Numbered from the stretch's first letter, positions 3,401 through 6,400 are shown. The stretch is 64,000 bases of DNA from Escherichia coli (GCF_045037415.1 NZ_CP173438.1); one strand, 5' to 3'. Numbers: made by a program.

Positions 3401-6400
3401 CAGCGACGTCGGTAATGATGTTTTTCGCCGAGGTGCTTTTAACTGAGCCATTTGCATTAAAGACAGTATGGCTGGCACTGTATTTATTACTTTTGCTGTC
3501 CCAGTGCAACGTGTTATTGTCGATGCTCTGGAGAGCCTCTCCCACGTTATTGTATTGGCCACTTTGTAGATAATATGTGGGAGCTTTAAGCGTCCCGTCA
3601 GAGTTTATAACATTATCAGGATCATCATGATATCCTCCAAGCCTGTCGGATACAGACTTACTGATGGCATAAAGTTGTGATCCATTGATGGCATCGGAGC
3701 TGACATTATTGATGTCACCATTACCCATATTGACAATTTTGCGCTTTAAACTAGAGCTACCTACAGACACGGTATTGTCAGCACCTGCGGAAGAATTTGC
3801 ACCAATGGCGACTGCGTTATCACCATTTGCGGTGGTGTTAAAACCGAAAGCAAGGCTGTTTTTGCCCCCCGCATTACTGTTGTTGCCCAGTGCAATGGCG
3901 TTCTCACCCGCTGACCTGCTGTTACTTCCCAGCGCAATTGAATCAAGTTTGCTTGCCTCGCTGCCTTGACCTATAGCGATGGAGTTGGTTTCACCAGCGC
4001 TGGCGTTGTCTCCCAGCGCCAGGCTGGACTTCCCGATCGCATCCGCGTTAAAGCCAATCGCCGTCGCATTTTCAGCAGCTTCGCTCTCTGCACCCATAGC
4101 AATCGCGTTTGCTGCGCTGGCGAGAGATAGTCTGCCTAAGGCAAGGCTGTCTGTGCCGTTAGCAGCACTGTCGCGGCCTACGGCAATGGCGTTAGCCGCA
4201 GATGCAACGCTACTTGCTCCCAGCGCCATTGAATATTCTTTTGAGGCATTAGCATGATCACCGAGGGCGATGCTCATAATTTCGTAAGCTTGAGCCGTAT
4301 TTCCTAACGCAATAGTTTTTTCACCATCGGCAAGGGCGGTGTCCCCAATAGCAAGAGATGTAAAACCATTCGTCTTTGCGTAACGACCAAGAGCCATCGA
4401 ACGACCGCCAGTTGCTACTGAAGATGCACCCAGCGCGACACTTCTGTCACCTATTGCTTGTGCACTAACCCCAAAGGCCATTGATGCACCACCAATCGCA
4501 TGAGTTCGTGAGCCTATAGCTGAGCTGTACTCACCTTCAGCTATCGCGTCATAACCTAGCGCAGTGCTCGCACCAGAGCCATTGACAAAGGTATTTGCTT
4601 TTGAATTTTTACCGATAGCAACCCAGCCGTCACCTGCTGAGCCATTGCCATAATCCACTGGCTGCCCCTCGTAGTTATCAGCCAGTGCCCCAAATGACGA
4701 TAACAGCCCACCTGCAACCAAGGCAGAAATTAACAGCTTACTGCGCCCGCTCTTTTTGCCACGGCTCTTCGCCGTTTCGCTGGCGACGTTGTAACTGCCT
4801 GTCGCCGGATTCCAGATAACTTTAAATATTTTGTTCATTATTGATGCTCTCTATTCCTTGATATAAGCGCAGAAGCTGCATTTATTTTTTGTTTTTCCGC
4901 TGCCGGGTTTCAGCAGGTTGAACAGTGTCGAACTGAAGATTAGCCATATTGATGGACAACTTCAGATACTTCAGGTTATTAGGCGAGACGCCTTTTAATG
5001 TCAGATTAATGTCTTGCCATTGACCAGGCATTAATTGCAGAGTGGAATTCAGGGTGGTGTTGAATAGTAATTGTTGCCATTTCGCCAGAGCTTTGGCATC
5101 GGTGGGTTTCTCATTCCCCCATGTCGCATGAAAGCCAATATTTGATACGGGAACGCTTAATAAGTTAACCAGCGAAATACGAATGACACTGCCATTTTCA
5201 ACCGCATCAATAGCCAGCACCCGGCCTGCCAAACCGACCGAGCCGTTATTTAAAATGAAGTATTGGGTTTGTAGCGGGTTAAATTCGGTGAAGACAAATT
5301 CGTCCTGTTTTTCTTTGACTGTCTTTACAATGCTGGCAAGTATTCTGGTGCTGTTTGTGATATTATTTTGTTGTTTTTCAAACAGTTCTGCTTTATTTTT
5401 ATATTGTTCTTGTTGTTTCTCAAGCTCCTCTATTTTACTTTTTTGCAACTCTTGCTGTTTGGCAAGATCATCGATCAGACTCGCTTTTTCAATATAATCA
5501 CAGCCTGTTAATGTACCTAGTGAAAATATTGTTAACACGTTTAAAAGTGTTTTCATGCTCATAGGATGAATTCCTTTTCATAACCCCAATATGTTGATAA
5601 TTACGCCATATTCATTCTTCTGATGAATGTTTTTTATATATGTATTCGCAATAAAACTTATAAGAGATTTATTGAAATAATTGGTATTACGGACGTTTTA
5701 TTAAATGACAACTGATTTCAGTTTGTAGCGAATGTTATGAGTCGCGCGAATTTTAATGAGCGGTATCAATCAATGTCAAATGTTTAGTGTCTTAGGCTGG
5801 GGAGCGCAGGGAGATTTTATATTCATATAAATGATGTGTTGTGATGAAATTTGCTGTGTTTATGGGGAAAGATAAATAATCATGCATCATAATTCGATTA
5901 TTTATTTTTATGATTTATATATCACTTGTTGTTGCGCAACAAATTTTCAGATTTTAGCCTGCAAAAATACCTCAAACTCGAGGGGAAACTGAAACAGTTT
6001 ACGGTAAGAAAGACATCGTATTTAATGAGTGGCACAGGCTCCTGCATGTGCCAGCAGGAGCGAGTAAATCGTGAGTGGCAGTAGTTACAGCGACGAGAAA
6101 GGAACTTAAAACGCAGTCTTTGAGAACCCTGTCATCTCTTGCAGGCCCATTTCACGGCCCAGCGCGGTCATTGGGTGCACAACCACCAGTCCGCGAACAC
6201 TTTTTTTCAGTTTGCCCATATCAGCCTGCTCTTTTTTGGTGATTGCACGCTGGAACGGCATCTTCATCAGTTTCTGCGCTTCTTTGCTGAGTTTCTGGCT
6301 GTGAACTTCGCGCAGGCGAGCAATTTCTGCTTCCAGCGTGGCTTTCTCTTTTTCCAGTTCGGCATATTTGTCTGCGGCTTCAACCAGCGATAGATCGGCC

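Follow-up and report, generated by a model that had tools for sequence, protein, structure and literature searches.

How is an adhesin operon of Escherichia coli kept off in laboratory culture, and what part is played by the long AT-rich DNA that precedes it? Pathogenic E. coli and Salmonella commonly carry trimeric autotransporter adhesins of the UpaG/EhaG/SadA kind, which reviews have put forward as scaffolds for vaccines or display (PMC12525524, PMC11054257). SadA itself has gone undetected in cultured Salmonella, its native inducing conditions being stated as unknown (PMC3953254). We have analyzed positions 5563–6105 of a 64,000-nucleotide stretch of E. coli DNA (hereafter designated the window), which lie ahead of one such adhesin locus.

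Identity and genomic context of the locus

On the basis of the list of open reading frames and the RefSeq annotation of an identical genome, the 543 bp at 5563–6105 coincide exactly with the gap between yibL and sadB, position 5563 adjoining the start codon of sadB and position 6105 the stop codon of yibL. The assignment as the yibL–sadB intergenic region follows from the RefSeq gene order in that genome, which runs lldP, a YadA-like trimeric autotransporter, a SadB/YajI-family lipoprotein, the gap, yibL, yibT, and then mtlR, mtlD, and mtlA (coordinates of the features are collected in Table 1). A 1.7-kb query around the gap was found with 100% identity in complete E. coli genomes, and the window allele, defined by a match of at least 99%, is carried by 566 of the 5426 complete genomes. 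The predicted lipoprotein matched the solved structure of SadB (PDB 4C47) at E = 4e-69, and the trimeric autotransporter adhesin (TAA), encoded 43 bp downstream of sadB, contains the Pfam domains ESPR, YadA_head, YadA_stalk, and YadA_anchor, each above its cut-off. The first-pass annotation had described the DNA as the upstream region of a lipoprotein/adhesin operon, and this is borne out by the gene order, the structural match, and the ESPR/YadA domains.

Table 1 Positions in the window of the sadB–TAA operon, its upstream neighbor, and the elements found or predicted between them.
Feature	Position	Strand	Remarks
TAA, UpaG/EhaG/SadA allele	495–4838	minus	Trimeric autotransporter adhesin, 1447 aa
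sadB	4882–5562	minus	Inner-membrane lipoprotein export helper, 226 aa; RefSeq name SadB/YajI family lipoprotein
AT-rich tract proper	5400–5960		About 65–75% AT; covers promoter, leader, and first ~160 bp of sadB; candidate H-NS platform
Predicted 5′ leader of sadB–TAA mRNA	5563–5743	minus	About 180 nt; start placed near 5742–5743 from the position of the -10 hexamer
Shine–Dalgarno AAGGAA of sadB	5571–5576	minus	AAGG invariant or nearly so in alignments
P1 -10 hexamer TAAAAT	5750–5755	minus	18-nt spacer after -35
P1 -35 hexamer TTGACA	5774–5779	minus	Consensus scan and alignments
IS1 insertion site	5928–5936		9-bp duplication in E. coli strain 4/4, otherwise 100% identical
Distal element AATCTGAAAA, consensus AAWTCYGAAAA	5944–5953	minus	170–185 bp upstream of -35
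Terminator-like hairpin and T-run CCTCGAGTTTGAGG TATTTTTGCA	5960–5983	minus	Consensus scan; possible yibL terminator in window allele
8-bp GC-rich hairpin GCTCCTGC-N8-GCAGGAGC	6038–6061	minus	In MFE and centroid folds; yibL 3′ flank
yibL	6106–6468	minus	Upstream neighbor of the gap, same strand as sadB

Comparison with characterized relatives places the locus firmly. In E. coli CFT073, upaG is found at the corresponding position and is likewise preceded by a lipoprotein gene of this kind, and both upaG and ehaG (of O157:H7) are found, like the adhesin gene of the window, in a sadB–TAA operon situated from yibL to lldP. In Salmonella, the lipoprotein gene and the TAA gene form the sadBA operon, which is silent in culture and in which the former lies directly upstream of the latter with a gap of 44 bp; as here, the operon lies between the mtl and lld operons, a location that is kept in Escherichia, Salmonella, and Shigella (PMC3953254). 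Moreover, Salmonella SadB (PDB 4C47) belongs to the same fold family as SadB of the window. We conclude that 5563–6105 is the cis-regulatory region of a chromosomal sadB–TAA operon that is orthologous by position to upaG, ehaG, and Salmonella sadBA.

The intergenic regions of these relatives are alike in length (543 bp in the window, 558 bp for upaG, and 542 bp for ehaG) and in GC content (33–36%), whereas the regulatory DNA of the window is only 71% identical to that of the CFT073 upaG allele and 57% identical to that of the ehaG allele. The coding sequences also differ: SadB of the window is 78% identical to that of CFT073 and 63% identical to that of the ehaG allele, and the adhesin is shorter than UpaG (1447 versus 1778 aa). 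The Salmonella allele that we fetched, with 66% SadB identity, is perhaps not the common S. Typhimurium allele; it shares its promoter and distal element with the window allele. Two more distant sadB representatives (P0137 and P0140) turned out to be paralogues without a linked adhesin and were set aside.

Divergence of this degree could be taken to mean that the gap is the edge or a remnant of a horizontally acquired island and that its AT-richness is foreign, the origin that the first-pass annotation had implied. Indeed, the alleles differ by 28–43% within one species while the adjoining yibL encodes an identical protein, the locus is missing from K-12, and 24% of the complete genomes are without sadB. 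However, the same position (yibL to lldP) and the same architecture recur in Escherichia spp., Salmonella, and Pseudocitrobacter, the TAA gene has a genome-typical GC content of 50.7%, and a search of the locus for tRNA, integrase, and mobility genes and for flanking repeats found none. The sadB gene is found on the chromosome in 4149 of the 5426 complete E. coli genomes, almost always once per genome and in no case on a plasmid, and its absence from K-12 goes back to loss of the operon through a 5-kb deletion (PMC3953254). The synteny of the locus across genera thus leaves horizontal acquisition unsupported, and we consider the island reading exceedingly unlikely; the data on the locus already lean toward congruence with the species tree, free of mobile-element scars. 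The yibL protein is represented by one RefSeq protein accession in all E. coli genomes fetched, and strong allelic divergence beside such an unchanged neighbor is typical of a surface-antigen locus that is old and undergoes recombination.

Base composition and its conservation among alleles

The GC content of the 543-bp gap is 34.8% as compared with 50.6% for the window, in which just 0.8% of all segments of this length are as low. Within the gap the composition is uneven, amounting to 30.4% GC over the 398 bp at 5563–5960 and 46.6% over the remaining 146 bp at 5960–6105, the 3′ flank of yibL. Beyond the other edge, the AT-rich tract carries on for about 160–180 bp inside sadB (65–68% AT in 100-bp segments starting at 5400–5500), and the 400 bp at 5523–5922 have the lowest GC content (29.2%) of any such segment in the whole 64 kb. 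The AT-richness is therefore real and greater than expected by chance. The window has 26 annotated intergenic regions that measure 100 bp or more (median GC content, 42.9%); of these, the gap is the longest and ranks sixth lowest in GC content, and five shorter regions are equally or more AT-rich, for example that between yiaY and selB with 25.8% GC. A description of the DNA as about 540 bp of strongly AT-rich sequence was thus exact in its coordinates and in accord with the overall GC content, but strong AT-richness is confined to 5563–5960 and also enters sadB.

TpA steps occur at twice the density of the window, and tracts of at least four A/T bases number 10 in the gap, corresponding to 18.4 per kb versus 10.1 per kb in the window. 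This number is equal to that predicted from composition by a Markov model (9.9 expected, standard deviation 3.1), so that the A/T tracts, which had been put forward as a feature of the region, provide no independent signal. Likewise, AA/TT dinucleotides in the gap showed neither 10–11 bp periodicity nor phasing of A-tracts.

The gap was then compared with alleles from four further E. coli genomes, CFT073 (by pairwise comparison), Escherichia sp. E1V33, E. fergusonii, E. ruysiae, E. albertii, one Salmonella enterica genome, three Pseudocitrobacter species, and one metagenome contig. Its length is 489–573 bp in all of them except P. cyperus (382 bp). In an alignment of 11 alleles the mean column identity was 57%, and in one of 14 alleles covering Escherichia, Salmonella, and Pseudocitrobacter it was 51%, with many indels outside the promoter islands described below. 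The 400 bp before sadB nevertheless have a GC content of 27–32% in every allele examined. At a column identity of 51–57%, it follows that the composition is conserved and the sequence is not.

Promoter, leader, and ribosome-binding site

A consensus scan revealed a promoter-like sequence, hereafter P1, with hexamers that match the consensus at 11 of 12 positions. In the 11-allele alignment, TTTGACA (5780–5774, minus strand) is the sole run of seven invariant columns, and ATTAAAAT, in which TA..AT is invariant, follows it by 18 nt. Across 14 alleles from three genera, TTGAC and the pattern ATTA..AT over the -10 hexamer are both invariant, and the pairwise comparison showed the same P1 elements in CFT073. 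The upaG and ehaG regions share with the window allele the same -35, -10, and distal TCYGAAA elements. From this conservation and the near-consensus hexamers, TTGACA–18 nt–TAAAAT is read as the sigma-70 promoter of the operon, one that is strong and deeply conserved.

Transcription from P1 would produce a leader that includes the Shine–Dalgarno sequence of sadB, which lies within a conserved island (5578–5569). Folding of the leader was unremarkable in comparison with shuffled sequences (z = -0.62), and an RfaH ops element was not found in it by eye.

Several alleles contain a GATC inside the P1 spacer, and phase variation is common among E. coli adhesins; the gap might accordingly be suspected of being a switch of the Dam/Lrp, Dam/OxyR, or invertible type, like pap, agn43, and fim. 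The window allele, however, is without GATC over the 917 bp from 5476 to 6393, a recombinase gene is absent nearby, and long flanking inverted repeats are missing, the longest being an AT-rich one of 14 nt. A repeat search yielded nothing beyond short AT-rich repeats, no more numerous than expected by chance, and we give hardly any credence to a phase switch.

Probable silencing of P1 by H-NS

AT-rich DNA that flanks a promoter on both sides is the layout of promoters silenced by coating or bridging with H-NS, such as those of bgl and proU, where AT-rich DNA likewise lies on both sides of a competent core promoter and continues into the first gene. In the window, about 560 bp of DNA with 65–75% AT span from approximately -215 to approximately +340 around the predicted transcription start, with P1 inside; the tract therefore reaches into the 5′ end of sadB. 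When set beside bgl and proU, the locus differs in being ancestral, not foreign. Because P1 is near-consensus and yet the operon is reported silent, and because the AT-rich layout is that of H-NS-silenced promoters, we favor the reading that a strong conserved promoter in AT-rich DNA is silenced by H-NS and thereby kept off in laboratory culture, to which we assign a probability of about 0.72. We infer that H-NS, with StpA, would polymerize on the AT-rich DNA of the window allele on either side of P1, or would bridge it; the near-consensus promoter would thereby be held silent in laboratory culture, and the silence would be lifted by some signal or antagonist.

A study by Totsika et al. from 2012 is said to be the source for repression of the upaG and ehaG promoter regions by H-NS. 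In passages that cite this study, UpaG is placed among the H-NS-repressed autotransporters (PMC5012682), and the entry in Table 2 of PMC12525524 gives upaG as derepressed by deletion of hns. Moreover, in an anaerobic Salmonella fur mutant, STM3690 (sadB) was down 4.2-fold and hns up 3.1-fold (PMC3212961), a pair of changes that fits repression by H-NS without proving it. H-NS repression of the locus is thus already known from publications on the sister alleles upaG and ehaG, and for this reason little is conceptually new in the present reading; the region is an ordinary one, the regulatory DNA of a known adhesin operon. What is added here is the precise location of a promoter that three genera have kept and the finding that the AT-richness is conserved even though the sequence is not.

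Computational proxies for H-NS binding in the gap were weak. Matches to the high-affinity 10-mer (TCGATAAATT-like) with at most three mismatches are 2.5–3 times denser than the window average, but their number, 12, does not exceed the Markov expectation of 11.4 from composition; enrichment of the 10-mer would support membership of the H-NS-silenced class but is not obligatory for it. A curvature profile predicted by a wedge model showed one peak near 5973 (21 deg/turn), the third highest in the window; the code passed controls with phased and unphased A-tracts. With the same parameters, the corresponding peak was among the three highest in just 4 of 11 alleles. Of two properties ascribed to the region earlier, its resemblance to DNA bound by nucleoid proteins agrees with a composition that fits H-NS binding (30.4% GC over 398 bp) and is kept across alleles, while its supposed curvature, as predicted, appears confined to this single local peak, prominent in a minority of alleles.

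The bgl operon may also offer a parallel in its activation by IS elements. Here, a natural isolate carries an IS1 upstream of P1 (Table 1). Such insertions in the gap are rare, as the region was split into two places in 5 of 1879 records among the matches listed.

A conserved distal element

Upstream of P1, close to the IS1 site, a second island stands out. In the 11-allele alignment, no non-coding 10-mer is better conserved than the distal element, which shares the top score (0.92) with the -10 island. It was found in 13 of the 15 alleles examined, at the spacing from the -35 hexamer given in Table 1, and lies about 200 bp upstream of the predicted start and no more than about 25 bp from the peak of predicted curvature. 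It is thus kept in Escherichia, Salmonella, and Pseudocitrobacter although the DNA has diverged to a column identity of about 51–57%. In the metagenome allele (L026) its place is taken by a near-match, TCTGAAAAAA, and P. cyperus, with its 382-bp spacer, is without the element and has kept P1. Elsewhere in the window, the element occurs at chance frequency with no enrichment.

Comparison by eye with consensus sites for IHF, CRP, FNR, Fur, ArgR, RcsB, sigma-54, and the -10 hexamer gave no convincing fit. The adjoining TTAGCCTGCAAA, compared in the same way, agrees with the SlyA consensus at 9 of 12 positions, in some alleles only. Judging from its conservation, the distal element might act as an operator through which some regulator or anti-silencer turns the sadBA/upaG/ehaG operon on, an assignment that we offer as possible but doubtful. 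If it is true, the element could be used as bait for the natural inducing signal, which is stated to be unknown (PMC3953254). Together with the natural IS1 insertion allele at 5928–5936, the element provides a handle for seeking this missing signal.

The same element raises the question whether the operon is off mainly for want of a dedicated activator that binds AAWTCYGAAAA (5944–5953), the AT-richness being incidental or an aid to bending and H-NS playing a secondary role. Its conservation on a par with the -10 island, its spacing from the -35 hexamer, and its proximity to the predicted bend would all suit an activator site, as would the unknown inducing conditions of the native operon (PMC3953254) and the description of STM3690 as FNR- and Fur-dependent (PMC3212961). 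A near-consensus P1, however, should need no activator, and P1 persists in P. cyperus where the distal element is lost; none of the regulator consensus sites compared by eye fits the element, whose frequency in the rest of the window is that of chance. The entry on derepression of upaG by hns deletion (PMC12525524, Table 2) also speaks against this reading. We therefore regard the want of an activator as an unlikely main cause and retain silencing by H-NS as the preferred reading.

Search for RNA elements and small proteins, and the 3′ flank of yibL

A gap of this length might also hide a small RNA, a riboswitch-like leader, a product of the yibL 3′ untranslated region, or a small protein. The leader is long (about 180 nt), it contains a short inverted repeat with variable spacing around 5612–5632, and the hairpin at 6038–6061 is conserved with one compensatory change. 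On the other side, an Rfam scan of 4500–7500 gave no match at E values up to 1, neither the leader nor the yibL 3′ flank folded better than shuffled sequences (z = -0.62 and -0.58, respectively), and no open reading frame of at least 30 aa was common to several alleles on either strand. The conservation of 51–57% with many indels outside the promoter islands likewise argues against such a product, which we judge to be very unlikely. One open reading frame of 52 aa with a TTG start (5926–6084) was allele-specific and was discarded.

The two hairpins upstream of the distal element behave differently among the alleles. The sequence of the terminator-like hairpin at 5960–5983 is not kept in other alleles, whereas that at 6038–6061 is kept in several, with the compensatory change occurring in P. 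vendiensis (GCTCCTGT...ACAGGAGC). Both hairpins are probably part of the yibL 3′ end.

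Divergence and insertions upstream of sadB

Across all the E. coli genomes fetched, the yibL product (WP_000665680.1) was an identical protein, and DNA identity between alleles fell to 57–79% from the yibL stop codon or within ~75 bp of it. The drop marks a very sharp recombination boundary, adjoining a diversifying surface-antigen locus.

In strain 24AR0376, everything to the left of window ~6034 was replaced by IS1 together with a truncated fimbrial usher and chaperone (fetched region L007). This looks like an IS1-mediated rearrangement, by which sadB and its promoter were lost from this position. 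E. coli strain 4/4 also carries an IS1 (fetched region L002), accompanied by a 9-bp target duplication, and was 100% identical to the window apart from this element. The insertion lies between the distal conserved element and the predicted sigma-70 promoter P1, ~150 bp upstream of the -35 hexamer, and may have given a natural allele that is either derepressing or disrupting.

Two further sequence features were also found in the regulatory region. The inverted repeat in the predicted 5' leader, ATCAT...ATGAT (ATTCAT...ATGAAT in the window), was found again in most Escherichia-type alleles with an arm spacing of 4 to 11 nt, and could form a weak RNA hairpin or serve as an operator. A moderately conserved block, AAACAT(C/T)A-N8-TGAATAT, precedes the -35 hexamer in the majority of alleles; it may act as an UP-like element or as a site for a regulator.

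Coordinates of the features described (window positions unless another sequence is named).
Feature	Position	Strand	Remark
Short inverted repeat	5612-5632	minus	In leader
Block AAACAT(C/T)A-N8-TGAATAT	5817-5837	minus	About -75 to -95 from inferred start
IS1 site, strain 4/4	5928-5936		L002 2637-3406
Rearrangement locus, strain 24AR0376	~6034-6105		L007 1731-2572
Identity drop	6105/6106 boundary		Seen in L003, L004, L006, L028
Glycoside hydrolase family 127 pseudogene	~21581-23550		NZ_OZ547143.1 561963-563932; annotation of window-identical genome

SadB matches and other observations

SadB (window 4882-5562) matched the Pfam family AvrM-A, a flax-rust effector family, over its N-terminal coiled-coil with an E value of 2.9e-5 and 25 bits, below the cut-off of 27; this match is probably coiled-coil noise. 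No matching model was found for SadB in NCBIfam. SadB was also encoded on three contigs (L008, L012 and L013) filed as MAGs of Oscillospiraceae, Collinsella and Bacillota, with 100%, 83% and 66% identity, respectively, to the window protein; these are most likely mis-binned Escherichia contigs.

Elsewhere in the window, the yiaY/selB spacer (16988-17177; 25.8% GC over 190 bp) had the highest AT content among the intergenic regions, being more extreme in AT-richness than the yibL-sadB region but far shorter. The glycoside hydrolase family 127 gene was annotated as frameshifted in the window-identical genome.
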